From Candidatus Nanohalobium sp. (lineage in GTDB: Archaea > Nanohalarchaeota > Nanosalinia > Nanosalinales > Nanosalinaceae): DNA of 11,871 nt. Positions 341-9,970 of the stretch are shown here, in pieces (position 1 is the first letter of the stretch; each line of letters opens with the position of its first letter). The notes under the pieces are model-generated. The model had not been told where the DNA came from. It made no database searches and saw nothing but the letters and a program-made list of their open reading frames with translations. Both the position numbers and the translations under genes were made by a program. The stretch covers positions 11,438 through 23,308 of the forward strand of contig JBDGTY010000026.1 in NCBI GenBank assembly GCA_042216335.1. Reading direction: 5' to 3'.

Positions 341-380
341 TGAAAGACAACGGCGGCAAGCTTTTTGAATACTGTCGGGA

Positions 381-388
381 TTTTTATT
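381..388 (+). promoter_or_regulatory. Putative TATA box for trkH (likely leaderless transcript)
   Basis: TTTTTATT about 25-32 nt upstream of ATG 413. The same motif and spacing occur before the GT2 gene. Confidence 0.45.
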
Positions 389-412
389 CAGGCCTCCAGA
401 ATCAAGGAATGT

Positions 413-1840
413 ATGAGGCCGCGCGTAGTCGCCCAGATAATCGGACGTTTTATGCTGGTTTTCTCAGTTATACTGGCGGCTCCGGTCCTCATCGGCCTGT
501 ACTACACCGAGTCGAGCGCAACGCTCGCACCTTTCATCTACTCGGCCATCACCTGCCTCATAGGCGGTTTCATACTGAAACATGGTGGGAGAAGCGATGA
601 TCCTTCTGTGAAGGAGGCGATGATCGCGACAGTGCTTGGCTGGAGCCTGGCAACTTTTCTGGGAGGAGTACCATTGCTCCCAGAGATGAGTCTTATCAAC
701 GCGGTCTTTGAATCAGCCGCCGGCCTGACAACTACCGGCATGTCGATGTTCACTGCTCCGGGAAGCCTTCCGCATTCGATACTTTTCTGGCGTGCACTGA
801 TGCAGTGGGTTGGCGGCCTCGGGATACTGACTTTCTTCATAGCTGTCATCAGGGAGTCAGGAGGCATCTCCCGTAGACTGTTCTCGGCGGAGACACACAA
901 GTCGGATCCAGGAAGTATAAGGCCTTCCCTGAGAAAAAGCATCATCGAGCTCTGGCGTGTCTACGGGTTCATCACATCCGTGATAATAGGTACTTTCGTC
1001 GCGCTGGGTATGCCCGTGTTCGACGCAGTAACCCACGGATTCTCCACTCTCTCCACTGGAGGATTCTCGACGACAGCCCAGAGTCTTGGAGGTTTCTCAC
1101 CGGCGATACAGGCCGCAACAGTTCCTTTCATGTTCATAGGCGGCGTCAACTTCGTCATACTGTACAGGTTGCTGAGAGGAGAGCTGAAATCCCTGAAGAA
1201 CTCGGAGTTGAAGCTCTACACCCAGATATTCCTGGCGCTGACTGGGGTCTTCCTGCTGGAAACCCTGAACTCCTCAGGTCTGTCGCAGGCGCTGCTGGAC
1301 TCTGCTTTCCAGTCGGCATCCATCATCTCCTCCACAGGCTTCGCCACTACCTCACTCATGGCTTTTTCGATCGCCGTCCAGATAATCATAATCGGAGTCA
1401 TGTTCGTCGGAGGCTCGGTCGGTTCTACTTCAGGCGGATTGAAGGTGTTCCGGCTCAAAACTCTGATAGAACTGCTGAGGACACGTATCCGGGCCTACTC
1501 TCTTCCAGAGACCGCGATAAACGAGGTCAAGATCGACGGCGAGCTGCTGGATGTTTCTGCTATAAGGACTGTCTCCGTCCTGTTCTTCATCTGGGTGGCG
1601 GTCGTTTTCCTCGGAACAGTCTCTGTACTGGCGTTTGACAACGTCAGCTTTGCTGCTTCGCTTTCCGGAGCTGTTTCCGCGGCCGGCAACATGGGACCTG
1701 TCTTCCTCTCCGGTGAGAGGATGGTTGAGCTTTCCTGGATCTCGAAGTCGGTCTGGATCGTTTTGATGCTGGCTGGGCGTCTTGAGATGCTCCCGGTTCT
1801 GGCAATATTTAATAGGAGCATCTTCCCAGATTCAAAGTAA
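413..1840 (+). CDS. trkH: Trk-type K+ uptake membrane subunit TrkH
   Basis: Four P-loop glycine motifs (GLTTTG, STLSTGGFS, ISSTGF, AGNMGP), plus WRALMQWVGGLGI, GGSVGSTSGGLK and LAGRLE. Start set at ATG 413 rather than TTG 365, whose extension covers the promoter. Confidence 0.95.
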   Translation: MRPRVVAQIIGRFMLVFSVILAAPVLIGLYYTESSATLAPFIYSAITCLIGGFILKHGGRSDDPSVKEAMIATVLGWSLATFLGGVPLLPEMSLINAVFESAAGLTTTGMSMFTAPGSLPHSILFWRALMQWVGGLGILTFFIAVIRESGGISRRLFSAETHKSDPGSIRPSLRKSIIELWRVYGFITSVIIGTFVALGMPVFDAVTHGFSTLSTGGFSTTAQSLGGFSPAIQAATVPFMFIGGVNFVILYRLLRGELKSLKNSELKLYTQIFLALTGVFLLETLNSSGLSQALLDSAFQSASIISSTGFATTSLMAFSIAVQIIIIGVMFVGGSVGSTSGGLKVFRLKTLIELLRTRIRAYSLPETAINEVKIDGELLDVSAIRTVSVLFFIWVAVVFLGTVSVLAFDNVSFAASLSGAVSAAGNMGPVFLSGERMVELSWISKSVWIVLMLAGRLEMLPVLAIFNRSIFPDSK

Positions 1841-1842
1841 GG

Positions 1843-2502
1843 ATGTACGTAGTGATCACAGGGATCAACACACTATCCCGGAAACTCGTCGATAGGCTGG
1901 AAGGCAGGCACGACGTCGTCATAATAGACGAAGACCAGGACAAATGCGAACGCCTCTACAGCTCCTCAGGAGCAACAGTCATAAACAAGTCACCTTCAAC
2001 ACTCTCAGCGCTGGAAGACGCCGGCATAACACAGGCAGACATATTAATCGCGACGCAGCAGAACGACAACGAGAACATGGTAGTATGTTCCCTCGGAAAG
2101 AAGTACGGTGTGCCGAAAGTGGTTTCCCGGATGGAGGACGACGAATATTTCGAGGCGTTCCAGATTATCGATGCACAGGCCATCGGCCACACAGATTTAC
2201 TTCTCTCGGAGTTCCTATCCGCGGTGGAACACCCTTACCTCGTGAAGCTGGCCAACCTCTCCGGCGACAGAGAAGTACTGAAGGCGCAGATACAGGACGA
2301 CTCCTCACTCAACGGGAAGACGGTCAAGCAGTTGAAGCACCGGAAGAAGTTCCCGGAGAAGTTCAACGTCGCATCGATAGTAAAAGATGATGAGATCCTG
2401 AATGCGGAGTCCGAGACCGAGCTGGAGAGCGGAGACTCCATCATCCTGATAGGGCCGGAAGAGGAGAAGGAGAAGCTGGACAAACTCTTCCAGAACCAGT
2501 AG
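1843..2502 (+). CDS. trkA: TrkA/KtrA-family single RCK (RCK_N + RCK_C) regulatory subunit
   Basis: Starts 2 nt after trkH. Contains HDVVIIDED, LEDAGITQADILIA, D.EN..VC.L.K.YGVPKVVSR, and the C-terminal TrkA-C pattern (S.L.GK.V..L; ELESGDSIILIG). Confidence 0.9.
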   Translation: MYVVITGINTLSRKLVDRLEGRHDVVIIDEDQDKCERLYSSSGATVINKSPSTLSALEDAGITQADILIATQQNDNENMVVCSLGKKYGVPKVVSRMEDDEYFEAFQIIDAQAIGHTDLLLSEFLSAVEHPYLVKLANLSGDREVLKAQIQDDSSLNGKTVKQLKHRKKFPEKFNVASIVKDDEILNAESETELESGDSIILIGPEEEKEKLDKLFQNQ

Positions 2503-2540
2503 CCCCAACCGGTAAAACACCTTCTCTTCAAAACCTTTAC

Positions 2541-3962
2541 ATGACCGCAATCGTCTGGATCAGGAGAAGCCTCAGAGAACACGACAACACCGCACTCGTC
2601 GAGGCCAGCAGAGAACACGACGAAGTCATCCCGTTCTACGTGGTCGACGACGAATACTTCGAGAACGCAACTCTTGGTTATCCGCGCGTCAAGTTCTGGC
2701 ATGATGCTCTGAAAGACTTGAAGGAAAACCTGGATGGAAAAGATGGCAAAGATTTGATTGTTCGGAAGGGAAAACCGGTCGAGGAACTTCAAAAAATAAT
2801 AGAAGAGACGGATGCAGACGCAGTCTACCACAACAGGGACTATACACCGCACTCCCGGCAGAGAGACGAGAATGTAGAAGAGGAACTAGAGGTAGAGGTC
2901 GAAACATTCAAGGACGTCGTGATGTTCGAGAAAGAGGAAATCCTGACCAATTCCGGCACGCCGTACAAGGTCTACACATACTACAGCAAGAAGTGGTTCG
3001 ACCGGGAGAAGAGACGGCCGCAAGATGTAGAGGAATACACTACACCGAAGGCTGAGTCAGATGAGATACCTTCGCTGAAGGAACTCGGATTTGAAGAGTC
3101 GGACGAACTTGAGTGGGTCTGGAACCCGGGCAGGGAAGGCGGAAAGGAAAGAATCGAAGATTTCAAGGATAAGATCTGGAACTACGACGAGAACAGGGAC
3201 TACGCCTGGAAAGACGCGACTTCAAAGCTTTCACCACACCTGAAGTTCGGCACGGTGTCGATCAGGGAGGTTTTCTGGGAGGCAGAGAGGATCAAGGCCA
3301 GGAACCCGAACGACGATACCTCGGGAATCAAGACCTGGCAGGAGGAACTGGCGTGGAGAGACTTCTACATGCAGGTTCTGTGGAACTGGCCGGAAACCAC
3401 GGAAAAACCTTTCCTAGAGGAATATGAGGAGATAGAGTGGAGAAGTAAGGAGGAAGCCAAGGAGGATTGGGAGGCCTGGGTGAAAGGTGAGACCGGCGTT
3501 CCTTTCGTTGACGCAGGTATGCGGCAGCTGAAGAGGACCGGCTGGATGCACAACCGATTGAGGATGGTAGTAACATCTTTCGCGTGTAAAAATCTATGGC
3601 TGGACTGGAAGGACGTCCACAAATACTTCAAGAAGATGTTTGTTGACGCTGAGATCGCCTCGATGGTCGGAGGCATCCAGTGGGCCTATTCGATCGGAAC
3701 GGACGCCCAGCCGTACTTCCGTGTATTTAACCCGTTCTCTCAGGGCGAGGATTACGATCCCGACGGAGAATACATCCGGAAGTGGGTTCCAGAGCTGGAA
3801 GACGTGCCCGACGAGCACATACACAAGCCACATGAGATGAACCGGCTTCAGCAGGAGGACTGCGGCGTGGAGATCGGCGAGGATTATCCCGAGCCTATCG
3901 TTGACCATGATGAGCGCAGAAAGGAGGCTATCGAGAAGTTTGAGGAGGCTCGGGAAGATTAA
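2541..3962 (+). CDS. phr: Photolyase/cryptochrome family flavoprotein, class I CPD photolyase-like, with atypical flavin-site residues
   Basis: Motifs WIRRSLREHDN.AL, TSKLSPHLKFG, EELAWRDFY, GETGVPFVDAGMRQL..TGWMHNRLRM, GTDAQPYFRVFNP, DPDGEYIRKWVPEL and YPEPIVDH. Confidence 0.95.
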   Translation: MTAIVWIRRSLREHDNTALVEASREHDEVIPFYVVDDEYFENATLGYPRVKFWHDALKDLKENLDGKDGKDLIVRKGKPVEELQKIIEETDADAVYHNRDYTPHSRQRDENVEEELEVEVETFKDVVMFEKEEILTNSGTPYKVYTYYSKKWFDREKRRPQDVEEYTTPKAESDEIPSLKELGFEESDELEWVWNPGREGGKERIEDFKDKIWNYDENRDYAWKDATSKLSPHLKFGTVSIREVFWEAERIKARNPNDDTSGIKTWQEELAWRDFYMQVLWNWPETTEKPFLEEYEEIEWRSKEEAKEDWEAWVKGETGVPFVDAGMRQLKRTGWMHNRLRMVVTSFACKNLWLDWKDVHKYFKKMFVDAEIASMVGGIQWAYSIGTDAQPYFRVFNPFSQGEDYDPDGEYIRKWVPELEDVPDEHIHKPHEMNRLQQEDCGVEIGEDYPEPIVDHDERRKEAIEKFEEARED

Positions 3963-6165: not shown

Positions 6166-6230
6166 CCAGGTCTGGAGTTTCTGGACGGTAAAATTTACTT
6201 AAAACCCGGAAGCCCATTCTATGCATAGTG

Positions 6231-8363
6231 ATGACCATCGGTTCAAAACTCGGAAAAGTCACTGTTCTTCTCGCACTAACAACCCTTGTGATCGGACTCG
6301 GAGCATCGCTGAGCTGGGAAAGACCTTCCAATGATGGGAAACATATCAATAAATCTTTCAGGCTCGAGGTCTCCGGTAATTCAGGACTCAGTGGTGTCAA
6401 TTTCTACTTCGATAAAGGAAACGGGTGGAAAGATGCAGGAAGTGCAAGCGAGAATTCCGGAACATACTATACCGACCTTGGTAGCACGAACCTGGGAAGC
6501 GTCGAAGGCCTGAAATTGAAGGCCAATACTTCAGATGTAGATGCTAGCGATAATGAGACAAGTACAAGGACTGTGACATTAGATGTCGGAGGACTTAGTG
6601 TAAACCCCAATGAAGACAATAAATACGTAGGAGCCGATCCAAAGATCGAATTCCAGGTTTCAGACAACTATAGCGATGTAATCAATGCTACTGCATCCGT
6701 AAGTTCCTCTGATGGATCGGTTTCGATCAGCAGTGATGCCAGCGTCAACCCTAACTGCAATCCCGGAAATACCTGTGCTGTAAGCTTTGATATAGATACG
6801 AGCGACCTGAGCAACGGCGACCAGTTCACTGTTGATGTCACCGCCACCGACCAGGTAGGAAAAACCGGAAGTGACTCAGCCACCTTCACATTAGATGATT
6901 CGTATAACGGTGATACTTCTCCGACTATCTCTCTGGAGAACGGCGGGAGTAACGGAGTGGTTTCGCTGGATGAGGGTGAGGAGGCGCAGGTAAACATCGA
7001 TATCGATGATAAAGATAACGAGAATACTGATATCCGGGCGAAGTGTTTCGCGAACGATGATAAGATCGGTACGACGGATTACGCGAGTCCAGGTGATGGT
7101 TCGGAGTTTTCGTGCAGTGTTCCTGCGGACGAGTACAGCGGAGATGTGAACTTCGAGGTACTGCTGTGTGATGAGGCAGGTAACTGCATGGATGACAGGG
7201 CTTCGAAGGATATCACTATCGACACCGAGCTTCCTACCATAGGTTATGTTGAGCATCCGGAAGGTGTTTCGACCTTTAACGGAGAGTTCACTTTGAACTA
7301 CGGTGCTTCCGATGATACGGGTATCAAGAGGCTGGAGTACAGCACGGAATCCGGAAACTACGGCAGCGGGATAAAGGTCGAGAGGGACGGCGACGGCCAG
7401 TTCACGGTCGCGGTAGACGATATCTCTCTCAACGCAGGCGGAACGAATACTCTCTACATCAGGGCACTGGATAAGGCCGGTCAGTGGAGCGGCGAGAAAA
7501 AATTCCAGTTCGAGTACTACCCTAACAAGCAGCCAAAGATCTCACTCAGTGCCCCTGAACGAGTCGAGGTTAAATCCGATTCCACTAAGACCTTCGACGT
7601 CACCATCGAGAACACCGGAGAGTTCCTGATCAGGAACTCAGTCATCTCTGACGGCAAGCTCGTGGAAGAGAACATCAACGTGACGGACCTGAAGGAAAAC
7701 TCAAGTATAACGAAGTCGATCACTATAGATGCCTCGCAGAGAGGTGTTGGGGTCTACAACATGACCTTGAGTTCGGATAGTCCATCAGCTTCGACTACTG
7801 TCGAGGTCGTGGTCCAGGCGACCAAGAGCCAGCAGCAGAGCATCAAACAGGATGTTGAGAACTGGGCTTCTAAGCTCGAAAGCCTGGAAAGCAATATCTC
7901 GAAGCTTGGAGGCCTTAAAGAGGAGAACAAGGAAGCGCTGGAAGGAAACGTCTCAGAGTTCAGGAGGAAAGTGGAGAAGGCTCAGAACGCCACGCAGAGC
8001 GGGGAATACTACAGGGCAAAGAATTACCTTCAGAACATCGACTCCGAATTCTCTCAGGCCTCCCAGACCTATACAGAGGTCAGGAAGGAGTACAACCAGA
8101 GGATGACCAACAGGTTGATCATGATCGCACTGGTGGGAGTTGTCGTCCTGGGAGGAGGAGCAGCCGGATTCCTGCTTTACAGGGAAGAGGAACTCCTGGG
8201 AGATGAGGGACTGCCGGACGTGCTACCAGATGACTGGGAGATCGACGTACCCGACAACCTTCCGGAACTTGGAGTGATGAGCAAGGCCAAGGGGCTTCTT
8301 GGAAACGGTGAAAGCGAGGAGGAAGAAGAGGAAGTCGGCTACACCTTCGAGGACTTCACCTAG
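6231..8363 (+). CDS. Large secreted, C-terminally membrane-anchored surface glycoprotein with Ig-like repeats, a CARDB-like domain and a helical stalk
   Basis: N-terminal signal-like segment (KLGKVTVLLALTTLVIGLGA). Beta-rich S/T/D/N/G repeats carry Big-like D.(A/V)G motifs (TATDQVG, LCDEAGN, RALDKAG), followed by V.I.NTG, a charged helical region, a TM helix (LIMIALVGVVVLGGGAAGFLLY) and an acidic tail. Start is ATG 6231 or in-frame GTG 6228. Confidence 0.8.
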   Translation: MTIGSKLGKVTVLLALTTLVIGLGASLSWERPSNDGKHINKSFRLEVSGNSGLSGVNFYFDKGNGWKDAGSASENSGTYYTDLGSTNLGSVEGLKLKANTSDVDASDNETSTRTVTLDVGGLSVNPNEDNKYVGADPKIEFQVSDNYSDVINATASVSSSDGSVSISSDASVNPNCNPGNTCAVSFDIDTSDLSNGDQFTVDVTATDQVGKTGSDSATFTLDDSYNGDTSPTISLENGGSNGVVSLDEGEEAQVNIDIDDKDNENTDIRAKCFANDDKIGTTDYASPGDGSEFSCSVPADEYSGDVNFEVLLCDEAGNCMDDRASKDITIDTELPTIGYVEHPEGVSTFNGEFTLNYGASDDTGIKRLEYSTESGNYGSGIKVERDGDGQFTVAVDDISLNAGGTNTLYIRALDKAGQWSGEKKFQFEYYPNKQPKISLSAPERVEVKSDSTKTFDVTIENTGEFLIRNSVISDGKLVEENINVTDLKENSSITKSITIDASQRGVGVYNMTLSSDSPSASTTVEVVVQATKSQQQSIKQDVENWASKLESLESNISKLGGLKEENKEALEGNVSEFRRKVEKAQNATQSGEYYRAKNYLQNIDSEFSQASQTYTEVRKEYNQRMTNRLIMIALVGVVVLGGGAAGFLLYREEELLGDEGLPDVLPDDWEIDVPDNLPELGVMSKAKGLLGNGESEEEEEEVGYTFEDFT

Positions 8364-8381
8364 AAAAAACTCTTTTTGTCT
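8364..8381. terminator. Putative bidirectional oligo-T terminator between convergent genes
   Basis: AAAAAAC-TCTTTTTG gives a T-tract on each strand directly after both stop codons. Confidence 0.45.
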
Positions 8382-8726
8382 CTACAGTATCCTTTCTGCC
8401 TCGGAGAACTTCTGCTTCAGCATGCCTTTATCCCTGACCGTGGTGACGATGCTCGCCAGTTCCTCGGTGTAGTCCTCTTCTTTCGCGGCCTTGTCCGCTG
8501 CATCATTCAACAAGATACCTGTCTGCGGATCATCCGTCAACTTCTCAACGATCCCCTGATCCGCCCGCTTCTCGTTCATGTACTGAGACACCGCCGGCTG
8601 AGTAACATCCAGGAGATCCGCGATCTCATGCTGGTGAAGCCCGTAATCCTCACTCAGCTTCCGGGCCAGTACACTCCTCACTGCGGGTAGAAGATCCTCG
8701 GAGATAACCTCGGATTCAAACCTCAT
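8382..8726 (-). CDS. Stand-alone XRE-like HTH transcriptional regulator (COG2522 / ThiR N-terminal-domain-like)
   Basis: E.....LLPAVRSVLA..L...YGL.Q.EIA.LL.VTQPAVSQY...KRA is the characteristic pattern of this archaeal family. Confidence 0.85.
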   Translation of the reverse strand: MRFESEVISEDLLPAVRSVLARKLSEDYGLHQHEIADLLDVTQPAVSQYMNEKRADQGIVEKLTDDPQTGILLNDAADKAAKEEDYTEELASIVTTVRDKGMLKQKFSEAERIL

Positions 8727-8777: not shown

Positions 8778-9047
8778 GTGGAAAGACCAGGCCGGAATGA
8801 AATCAGGGAATTCAACAGAATCCTTGAGAAGAAGGAGAGCTCCCGCTGCTACATCGAGGCTAACCGCGAAACTTTATCCAAAAATTACGAAGGCAAGGAA
8901 GTGATAGCGATAACTGGCGAAGAAGGGAGCGAGATAGCAGCAGCCTATGACCCAGAATCTGAACACAACTGGGAGCAGGCGCTTTCAGCCATAATAGAAA
9001 CTTATGGTGAAGAAACGTATCACAGCGCCGTTGCCAGAGAACTATAA
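8778..9047 (+). CDS. Small acidic hypothetical protein, DUF5678-like
   Basis: 89 aa, GTG start, fills the intergenic gap, with acidic composition like the other genes. YIEANRETLSKNYEGKEVIAI resembles the N...L...Y.GK..AI pattern of DUF5678 proteins (from memory of the family). Confidence 0.6.
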   Translation: MERPGRNEIREFNRILEKKESSRCYIEANRETLSKNYEGKEVIAITGEEGSEIAAAYDPESEHNWEQALSAIIETYGEETYHSAVAREL

Positions 9048-9070: not shown

Positions 9071-9412
9071 CTAGTGATCCGCCTGTTCGACTTCGCGTGA
9101 AAGCCTTTCGACGTCGGCTGAGAGTGCGTCCAGTTTCCGGGCGACTCTTTCCTTCTCCTTGATGATGTTCTCGACTTTCTCGTATTTTCTTGCGGCGGTG
9201 TCGAGGTGGTGTTTTTCGACGTATGCTGCGTCCGTCTCCATCATGTTGTCGATGATCTCTTCTGCGATCTCACCGAGCAGGAGGTTGAGGCCGTAGTATA
9301 CGTTTGAGCGGACGTACTGACCGTCTGCTGCCTTGTCTCTGATCATCCTTTTGATCCTTGCGTGAGTGAAAGGAAGGTCTTCTACCTCAGTGTCGTTTGG
9401 GACTTCTACCAT
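9071..9412 (-). CDS. Histone-fold protein with C-terminal coiled-coil extension (coiled-coil histone variant)
   Basis: LPFTHARIKRMIR (alpha1, cf. LP.A.I.RI.K), YVRSNV (L1), a long amphipathic alpha2, YVEKHHL (L2/alpha3), then heptad-rich VENIIKEKERVARKLDALSADVERLSREVE. Confidence 0.85.
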   Translation of the reverse strand: MVEVPNDTEVEDLPFTHARIKRMIRDKAADGQYVRSNVYYGLNLLLGEIAEEIIDNMMETDAAYVEKHHLDTAARKYEKVENIIKEKERVARKLDALSADVERLSREVEQADH

Positions 9413-9498: not shown

Positions 9499-9726
9499 AT
9501 GGTTGACTGGCAGGCCGTGAACCTCGGGCTCAGCATCTTGGTCAAAATCGTTTTCCTTGGGATATTTGCAGCGACAATCTACGTACTGAAGAATGCTAAC
9601 GAACTGGTTGAGTCGGCGGAGAGGTCTGCCGAGTCGATCGAGCAGACGGCAGAGGACATCGGCCGTATCGTATCGGTTCTCAGGATGCTTCCGTTCACGA
9701 AGCCGAAAGGTGGTCGGGATGAATGA
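9499..9726 (+). CDS. Small membrane protein (75 aa): one TM helix plus a short coiled coil
   Basis: MVDWQAVNLGLSILVKIVFLGIFAATIYVLKNANELVESAERSAESIEQTAEDIGRIVSVLRMLPF... ATG 9499 follows a good BRE/TATA. The track's TTG 9397 start would overlap the histone gene. Confidence 0.75.
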   Translation: MVDWQAVNLGLSILVKIVFLGIFAATIYVLKNANELVESAERSAESIEQTAEDIGRIVSVLRMLPFTKPKGGRDE

Positions 9727-9970
9727 GTTCGTCGAGGCGGCGAAAAACTCCTCCAACGGCGAGGAAGATGATTCGAAGGACCGTTACGAGAAGGTTAAGA
9801 AGGAGGAGGCCGGTACAGACAAGCCTGATCCTGTTAAGCAGCGGTACAACGAATTGAAGGAGAAGGCGAAGAAGGAGTACAAGAAACAGGAAGAGAAACG
9901 GAGGAAGCGGCAGAAGGAGCAGGAGGAACTCGAAGACGATGAGGATGACGAAGGTTTCGTAACGTATTAA
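9719..9970 (+). CDS. Highly charged hypothetical protein (83 aa)
   Basis: ATG 9719 overlaps the upstream stop (ATGAATGA) and has SD-like AAAGGTGG. The protein is a K/E-rich helix with an acidic tail ending GFVTY, and uses GAG/AAG-rich codons like its neighbours. Confidence 0.75.
   Translation: MNEFVEAAKNSSNGEEDDSKDRYEKVKKEEAGTDKPDPVKQRYNELKEKAKKEYKKQEEKRRKRQKEQEELEDDEDDEGFVTY

Follow-up and report, generated by a model that had tools for sequence, protein, structure and literature searches.

The stretch of DNA analysed here (the window; 11,871 nucleotides of contig JBDGTY010000026.1 from a Candidatus Nanohalobium genome) carries a photolyase gene whose product has replaced two residues of the flavin pocket. 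The product has both domains of the photolyase (PHR) fold, as Pfam matches were obtained to DNA_photolyase (PF00875, E 6.7e-42) in its N-terminal part and to FAD_binding_7 (PF03441, E 8.8e-85) in its C-terminal part. The AlphaFold2 (AF2) model is confident, with a mean predicted local distance difference test (pLDDT) score of 96.9, and Foldseek superimposed it on 4u63, 1owm and 1qnf with a template modelling (TM) score of 0.92 each. Searching the PDB chains with phmmer gave full-length matches to 4u63 (class III PhrA of A. tumefaciens, E 7.4e-91), 1tez and 1owl (class I photolyase of A. nidulans, E about 3e-81; 3.1e-81 for 1tez) and 1dnp (E. coli Phr, E 1.4e-77).

No residues of the photolyase flavin pocket have been studied more than Asn378 and Trp382 (E. 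coli numbering). The Asn hydrogen-bonds N5 of the flavin, and Trp382 is the proximal Trp of the photoreduction chain. An initial annotation of the window had proposed that Met375 (ATG, position 3663) and Ile379 (ATC, position 3675) replace these two residues, that the equivalent of Asp374 is Glu, that the Gly of DWxxG is Val, that an extra Trp and a Tyr (in QWAYS) are present nearby, and that the other two triad Trps and the CPD (cyclobutane pyrimidine dimer)-binding residues (E..W, N-R..M and QW) are intact. All of these assignments were borne out: the codons are as described, the alignment with E. coli Phr made by MAFFT pairs N378 with M375, W382 with I379 and D374 with E371, and V359, W353, Y383, W356 and W300 are the residues in question. 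The phmmer alignments to 4u63 (‘vdadpasnaanwqw’) and to 1tez/1owl (‘vdgdlaannggwqw’) run through the motif without gaps and agree with the MAFFT mapping, and an alignment shift as the cause of the Met and Ile is thereby ruled out. Thus, the protein departs from class I CPD photolyases in having Met375 in place of the Asn at site 378, and in lacking a complete W382-W359-W306 triad, the proximal position being Ile379.

To define how widely these states are shared, we compared two sets of proteins. The clade set consisted of the best 120 homologues in a collection of 5.8 billion proteins (61-100% identity), and the outgroup consisted of 146 representatives of at least 430 amino acids from a library clustered at 50% identity, three shorter ones having been dropped. 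The features of the gene and the residue counts at the sites of interest are collected in Table 1. The initial annotation considered sequencing error unlikely on the basis of the codons; that view is now secured by the homologues, as all 120 carry Met at the first site, and carry Ile (118) or Val (2) at the second. The Met and Ile substitutions are therefore confirmed as real, beyond chance or sequencing error.

Table 1. Features of the photolyase gene in the window and residue states at the corresponding sites of the clade set (120 proteins) and the outgroup (146 proteins); the last three rows refer to a locus of another genome (L032) and are numbered within that locus.
Feature	Position	Strand	Evidence or residue states
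Photolyase gene P0001, 473 amino acids plus stop	2541..3962	+	Open reading frame (ORF) list, translation, Pfam, AF2 model, Foldseek
N-terminal alpha/beta (antenna) domain, residues 3-157	2547..3011	+	Pfam DNA_photolyase PF00875
FAD (flavin adenine dinucleotide)-binding helical domain, residues 266-468	3336..3944	+	Pfam FAD_binding_7 PF03441
Tyr147 (E. coli P152), clade-fixed			Pro to Tyr
Trp300 (E. coli W306), distal triad Trp kept	3438..3440	+	Trp 119/120
Thr345 (E. coli A348), clade-fixed			Ala to Thr
Trp353 (E. coli L356), common but not fixed	3597..3599	+	Trp 96, His 18, Phe 2, Lys 2 of 120
Trp356 (E. coli W359), middle triad Trp kept	3606..3608	+	Trp 120/120
Val359-His360 (E. coli G362-E363), clade-fixed	3615..3620	+	Site 362: Val 64, Leu 55, Ile 1 of 120, outgroup Gly 146/146; site 363: His 100%, outgroup Glu 81%, His 0%
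Phe367 (E. coli L370), clade-fixed	3639..3641	+	Phe 118, Tyr 2 of 120; outgroup Leu 146/146
Motif DAEIASMVGGIQW, residues 369-381 (E. coli D372..W384)	3645..3683	+	
Glu371 (E. coli D374)	3651..3653	+	Glu 115, Asp 5 of 120; Glu in 13/146 outgroup
Met375 (ATG), flavin-N5 Asn site (E. coli N378)	3663..3665	+	Met 120/120; outgroup Asn 144, Asp 2 of 146
Ile379 (ATC), proximal triad Trp site (E. coli W382)	3675..3677	+	Ile 118, Val 2 of 120; outgroup Trp 145, Phe 1 of 146
Tyr383 (E. coli A386), clade-fixed	3687..3689	+	Tyr 120/120; outgroup Ala 130, Ser 11, Gly 2, Thr 1
L032: type C photolyase gene	1561-3129		
L032: FeS-BCP gene	12045-13457		
L032: type B photolyase gene	14297-15652		

The two substitutions do not stand alone. 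When only the columns that are conserved in both sets were considered (117 eligible columns), seven were found to carry a replacement that is fixed in the clade and present in no more than 5% of the outgroup. These seven sites are P152, A348, E363, L370, N378, W382 and A386 in E. coli, and six of them lie within residues 345-383 (Fisher p 1.7e-5). The initial annotation had described a coordinated rewiring of the flavin site, a description which this clustering upholds; the L370F and E363H changes, fixed together with the ones it listed, were absent from it. The consequences it put forward, namely another reduction route, changed redox or spectral properties, a different cofactor or a photoreceptor role, are proposals, the photoreceptor being the less likely of them. 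Two other changes carry less weight. The Glu at site 374 is not unusual by itself, since it also occurs in the outgroup (Table 1), and Trp353 cannot be essential because only 96 of the 120 proteins have it, with His in 18. In the AF2 model, residues 372-382 form one helix, and Met375, Ile379 and Tyr383 are spaced i, i+4 and i+8, Tyr383 following Ile379 by one helical turn; these three residues therefore line one face of the helix.

The residues that serve cofactor and substrate binding have been retained. R226, T234, S235, S238, W277, R278, N341, R342, R344, M345, D372, G380, G381, W384 and R397 (E. coli numbering) are present in all 120 clade members, Y222 is kept in 119, and 116 have E274, the remaining four having Gln there. 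The predicted FAD contacts, namely the R344-D372 salt bridge and the phosphate contacts of T234, S235 and S238, are thus found in every member, and those to the CPD (R226, E274, W277, N341, M345, W384 and R397) in 116 to 120 of the 120. At site 377, next to the N5 site, the clade has Ser (69) or Ala (51); a polar or small residue here, the photolyase-like state, has been linked to a stable reduced flavin (FADH-) and good repair (PMC9356274). Taken together, these results suggest that the window protein is probably a functional CPD photolyase whose flavin pocket has been remodelled, a prediction drawn from its sequence and its relatives.

The genome itself bears on which cofactors are available. 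The assembly is a draft (1.02 Mb, 74 contigs, 96% complete). An archaeal riboflavin kinase is present in it; lumazine (6,7-dimethyl-8-ribityllumazine, DMRL) synthase was not found and neither CofH (F0 synthase) nor, at the family cut-off, UvrA gave a match, although absence from a draft assembly is no proof. From the presence of the kinase and the lack of lumazine synthase and CofH, the cell probably imports riboflavin and cannot make 8-hydroxy-5-deazaflavin (8-HDF). These observations matter for the proposal that the pocket holds something other than ordinary FAD, for example a 5-deaza or otherwise modified flavin that needs no hydrogen-bond partner at position 5. Met cannot supply the usual carbonyl hydrogen bond to N5-H, and flavins must be imported if DMRL synthase is truly missing. 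However, the residues around the FAD phosphates, ribityl chain and isoalloxazine ring are all kept, including the R344-D372 pair and G381, a riboflavin kinase is available whereas no CofH match was seen, and a photolyase with Met at the N5 site, SePhrB, is described with FAD (PMC9178010). A different cofactor is therefore very unlikely, and a CPD photolyase using FAD continues to be favoured.

The N-terminal domain also shows changes. In this antenna domain, four positions between residues 39 and 53 (window positions 2655-2702) have exchanged an aliphatic residue for a clade-specific aromatic one (Y39, F40, Y47 and W53), and residues 39 and 53 correspond, as mapped by hand, to Ile41 and Leu55 of the 8-HDF pocket of the Synechococcus enzyme. 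Since the genome has no CofH match, the antenna chromophore may be different or absent. These aromatics hint at wider remodelling and, together with the co-fixed pocket changes unique to the clade, could be taken to mean that the enzyme repairs another substrate, such as lesions in single-stranded DNA or a different UV (ultraviolet) photoproduct, with the pocket retuned accordingly. Yet the equivalents of the CPD contacts E274, W277, N341, M345 and W384 have been retained, a separate member of the prokaryotic (6-4) photolyase family (FeS-BCP) is encoded in the same genomes, and the score with the DASH model (TIGR02765) is 213.5, below the cut-off of 317.05. We thus regard a change of substrate as distinctly unlikely, and CPD repair as the probable function.

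Among records with a named source, the Met/Ile proteins come almost exclusively from one archaeal phylum. Wherever the source of the 120 best homologues is named, it is the Nanohaloarchaea. In the library clustered at 50% identity, the clade is reduced to one representative (P0084, 69% identity), and the next match has just 44% identity. We also scanned contigs with a back-translated pattern, D-x-[DE]-x3-M-x-G-G-x-Q-W-x4-G-x-D, in which the codon for the Trp was left free. In the genome contigs, which represent 185,579 species by a single genome each, the pattern gave 52 stretches, 51 of which are Met/Ile-type photolyases and one a chance match; in the metagenome contigs it gave 38, comprising 36 photolyases of this type and two chance matches; and in the viral contigs it gave none. 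All 51 genome loci have Met, Ile or Val, and Tyr at the three sites, and Met with the Trp retained was never found in the scans of genome and metagenome contigs. As the pattern demands GG and QW..G.D, more divergent family members would escape it. The named genome records belong to the Nanohaloarchaeota (Nanosalina, Nanohalobium, Nanoanaerosalina, Asbonarchaeaceae and the metagenome-assembled genomes (MAGs) called QJJ) with few exceptions: one complete chromosome of the Halorutilales (class Halobacteria) and one record labelled ‘Colwellia polaris’. Several other records carry just the labels ‘uncultured archaeon’ or ‘uncultured euryarchaeote’. The ‘Colwellia polaris’ MAG contig, JBLGBK010000004.1 (L046), carries a nanohaloarchaeal Met/Ile photolyase, and its public label is probably wrong. 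Within the phylum, 58 of 70 genomes have PF03441 matches, and Met, Ile or Val, and Tyr were present at 29 of the 30 loci examined, the remaining one being a fragment at a contig end.

Purifying selection on these genes is evident from comparisons with four relatives, where the proportion of nonsynonymous differences (pN) was 0.09-0.12 while that of synonymous differences (pS) was saturated at about 0.8. Lineage-specific decay is ruled out by this difference and by the clade-wide conservation. More generally, one might suppose a decaying or inactive relic, given that two residues regarded as essential are missing and that the symbiont genome is reduced to only about 1 Mb. However, a relic would hardly show the same states fixed across 120 homologues down to 61% identity and recurring at 51 genome and 36 metagenome loci, a pN far below pS, an intact reading frame and a confident AF2 model. 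Such an explanation is extremely improbable, and a functional CPD photolyase is the reading carried forward here.

Whether the motif defines a clade, a check proposed in the initial annotation, was answered by phylogenetic analyses: it does so across the Nanohaloarchaeota. With FastTree (94 rows), the Met/Ile sequences formed one group with support 100, and with IQ-TREE (LG+G4; 47 of the same 94 rows) the group had an SH-aLRT value of 100. Its stem length is about 0.49. The nearest outside group, to which the clade is joined with SH-aLRT 91 (unstarred), consists of the metagenomic protein P0121, P0131, the photolyase P0138 from the Halobacteriales and the ‘type B’ paralogues (see below). The Met/Ile gene of Halorutilales archaeon Cl-col2-1 (CP169074.1, about 1.9 Mb) is the only PF03441 gene of that organism; its product shares 59% identity with the closest copy from the Nanohaloarchaeota and is nested in the clade beside a QJJ-9 sequence (support 90, unstarred), which suggests gene transfer between the symbiont and haloarchaeal lineages. 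Apart from this case, the distribution is best explained by one ancient lineage of the class I/III photolyase supergroup that has been passed on vertically. A 2026 paper in Molecular Biology and Evolution reconstructs a photolyase in the nanohaloarchaeal ancestor with a posterior probability of 0.99. In the outgroup, two class I-like proteins, P0138 (from a Halobacteriales MAG) and P0232, have Asp at the N5 site, the state of plant cryptochromes, and P0228 (Bacillus altitudinis group) has Phe at the proximal Trp site.

Among enzymes of known structure, PhrA of A. tumefaciens (4U63) is both the best sequence match in the PDB and the best Foldseek match (TM 0.92, 34% identity). The two proteins agree in the order of their domains and in their contacts to FAD and to the substrate (HNR.RM and QW), but PhrA differs in its ASNAANWQW motif, in which the N5 site is Asn and the proximal site Trp. 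The clade does not group with the representatives bearing the PhrA-like DTLVDAD...WQW motif, by which alone class III can be recognized in the tree. The class I enzymes Phr (1DNP) and PhrA of Synechococcus/Anacystis (1QNF, 1TEZ) are similarly close (TM 0.89-0.92, E 1e-77 to 3e-81) and have in common with the window protein W359, W306 and every FAD and CPD contact checked; relative to them, the clade has N378 changed to Met, W382 to Ile, G362 to Val or Leu, L370 to Phe, A386 to Tyr and E363 to His. With the nearest named relatives in the tree, the type B paralogues and haloarchaeal class I-like photolyases such as P0138, identity is about 40-44% or lower; their proximal site is Trp, and their N5 site is Asn except in P0138, which has Asp. 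Asn at the N5 site is stated to be conserved in CPD, 6-4 and DASH enzymes, the Asp and Cys of cryptochromes being the exceptions (PMC9356274). Our literature searches found no description of Met at the N378 site in class I/III photolyases and no mention of N378M, N386M or N403M variants, and among the papers on Nanohaloarchaea and photolyase no title concerned these flavin-site residues. That the initial annotation did not recognize Met/Ile at these sites as a described subclass is in line with these searches.

Natural replacements of the N5 Asn do occur in the same supergroup, in plant cryptochromes (Asp at 378) and in insect type I cryptochrome (Cys at 378; PMC9356274). The window protein might act as a sensor of light or redox state in the manner of cryptochromes, instead of repairing DNA, with the altered N5 residue shifting the resting or signalling state of the flavin. 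Changes at site 378 are, in the same source, the best-known marker separating cryptochromes from photolyases, and an extra canonical photolyase paralogue in some relatives could take over repair. However, in these cryptochromes the Trp chain is intact, a C-terminal extension is present and repair has been lost. In the window protein, the chain is broken at the first link, the very proximal Trp that cryptochromes use for light-driven reduction; the alignment to PhrA reaches residue 467 of 473, so that the protein ends with the PHR domain; and all CPD- and DNA-contact residues are conserved. In addition, the score with the cryptochrome model TIGR02766 (261) is, like the DASH score given above, below its cut-off (603.85), and neither the window's genome nor that of the Halorutilales archaeon has any other class I-like member of the family. 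With the substrate contacts intact, no C-terminal extension, and the donor chain that a cryptochrome needs broken, a photoreceptor is unlikely, and repair of CPDs is the more probable role of the Met/Ile protein.

A closer parallel is found in another class. SePhrB of Synechococcus elongatus and the ‘HC’ subgroup of FeS-BCP (PDB 8IJY) resemble the window protein in having a Met by N5 together with an interrupted chain of aromatic donors. In SePhrB, Met399 lies close to N5 at a position that is Glu in related enzymes, and the chain of Trp and Tyr donors is interrupted; the enzyme is photoreduced without an external donor, is reoxidized extremely slowly and repairs efficiently (PMC9178010). By the counts given in the text of that paper, 37 of the 50 members of the FeS-BCP subgroups without an intact chain have Met, and a 2025 preprint makes a similar point for a second cyanobacterial enzyme. 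The pairing of Met by N5 with an interrupted donor chain was thus already published for FeS-BCP (6-4) photolyases, a precedent missing from the initial annotation. The class of SePhrB differs in its DPRP N-terminal domain, its Fe-S cluster and its (6-4) substrate, and Met replaces Glu there but Asn here. As Pfam gave no match to the DPRP domain (PF04244) in the window photolyase, which sets it apart from FeS-BCP, the Met and the broken chain must have arisen independently in the two groups.

By analogy with SePhrB, the following scheme can be proposed for the Met/Ile enzymes. Repair would run as in other photolyases, with excited FADH- donating an electron to the dimer once this is flipped out. 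With its Met lining, higher hydrophobicity and added aromatic shell, the N5 pocket would keep the flavin reduced, and/or the flavin would be re-reduced without the canonical Trp382 route, by a nearby donor that could be Met375 or Tyr383, the latter possibly paired with His360 (Tyr383 and His360 are put forward from their sequence position only). The ring of Tyr383 may fill the space vacated by the indole of Trp382. The classical triad, Trp382 included, would then become dispensable. Loss of the first link of the triad should be tolerable because, according to a review (PMC10940379), the photolyase flavin is held reduced in vivo and no photocycle is needed. On this basis, the Met/Ile lineage suggests a second route by which photolyases can stay active in nature.

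Several points weigh against a working CPD photolyase. Asn378 of E. coli photolyase is reportedly crucial for DNA repair, to go by the title of one paper, and Met at this site might cripple class I chemistry. The analogy with SePhrB crosses photolyase classes and substrates. The scores with the NCBIfam equivalog model NF007955 (355.7, cut-off 506) and with TIGR03556, the model of the 8-HDF-type subfamily (362.8, cut-off 884.6), are both below the cut-offs. Finally, some nanohaloarchaeal genomes have a canonical N/W type B paralogue, which would allow the two proteins to share the work, the Met/Ile one not being the chief CPD enzyme.

Relatives of a second photolyase of the window's genome extend the parallel. 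Besides its one PF03441-class gene, this genome has a second family gene, of the FeS-BCP or prokaryotic (6-4) type, which is cut by a contig end (G000:C15:3-1004, minus strand; L042). Over residues 1-334, its product is 86% identical to a full-length protein from the same genus (L034:1297-2709, plus strand), which has Pfam matches to DPRP and, weakly, to FAD_binding_7 and which matches the solved FeS-BCP (6-4) photolyases with E values of 1e-73 to 1e-76. Aligned with PhrB of A. tumefaciens, the full-length protein carries Met in place of Glu403, Phe in place of both Tyr391 and Tyr395, and Tyr in place of Trp342; Met and both Phe residues, a state like that of SePhrB, were seen in all four nanohaloarchaeal FeS-BCPs checked. 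The truncated copy of the window's genome ends before PhrB positions 391-403. A bolder hypothesis can be tentatively considered, although we think it less likely to hold than to fail: Met over the flavin N5 might be a second general photolyase design, reached independently in two classes and giving an oxidation-resistant, self-sufficient FADH- without the Trp chain; both photolyases of this lineage might be built on it; and in the Met/Ile enzyme, Tyr383 might occupy the Trp382 cavity and act with His360 as a proton-coupled donor that feeds the flavin from W356 and W300.

These proteins should be of interest for several reasons. A natural clade under purifying selection has replaced both Asn378 and Trp382 and yet keeps the repair site, providing an evolutionary experiment that bears on the roles of these two residues and on the means of maintaining or restoring FADH- in the absence of the triad. 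Since Met-type FeS-BCPs show a parallel state, the question about the flavin site is a general one. Such enzymes could possibly keep working in air under bright light with no reductant supplied, and the authors of the SePhrB study consider this kind of stability useful for applied photolyases (PMC9178010). The findings also bear on UV survival in brines of DPANN symbionts that have genomes of about 1 Mb and no detectable UvrA.

Further paralogues of the photolyase family are present in some nanohaloarchaeal genomes: the canonical N/W type B proteins of about 450 amino acids, the ‘type C’ proteins of 490-520 amino acids, and the FeS-BCPs. In one nanohaloarchaeal chromosome, three such genes (Table 1) lie within 17 kb (L032; G040:C1:482000-499000), while the Met/Ile gene of that chromosome sits elsewhere; a similar grouping was seen in G055 (L040). 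The L032 cluster looks like an acquired photolyase island.

In the window, the photolyase gene is preceded on the same strand by trkH and trkA, the genes for potassium uptake (365-2502, plus strand), with a gap of 38 bases, and of the 82 loci searched in relatives (two sets that overlap in genomes), 41 have trkA next to the photolyase gene. Farther downstream, an ORF of 711 amino acids (6228-8363, plus strand) has no Pfam match, and the same applies to the small ORFs near it at 8376-8690, 8778-9047, 9071-9412 and 9593-9970.

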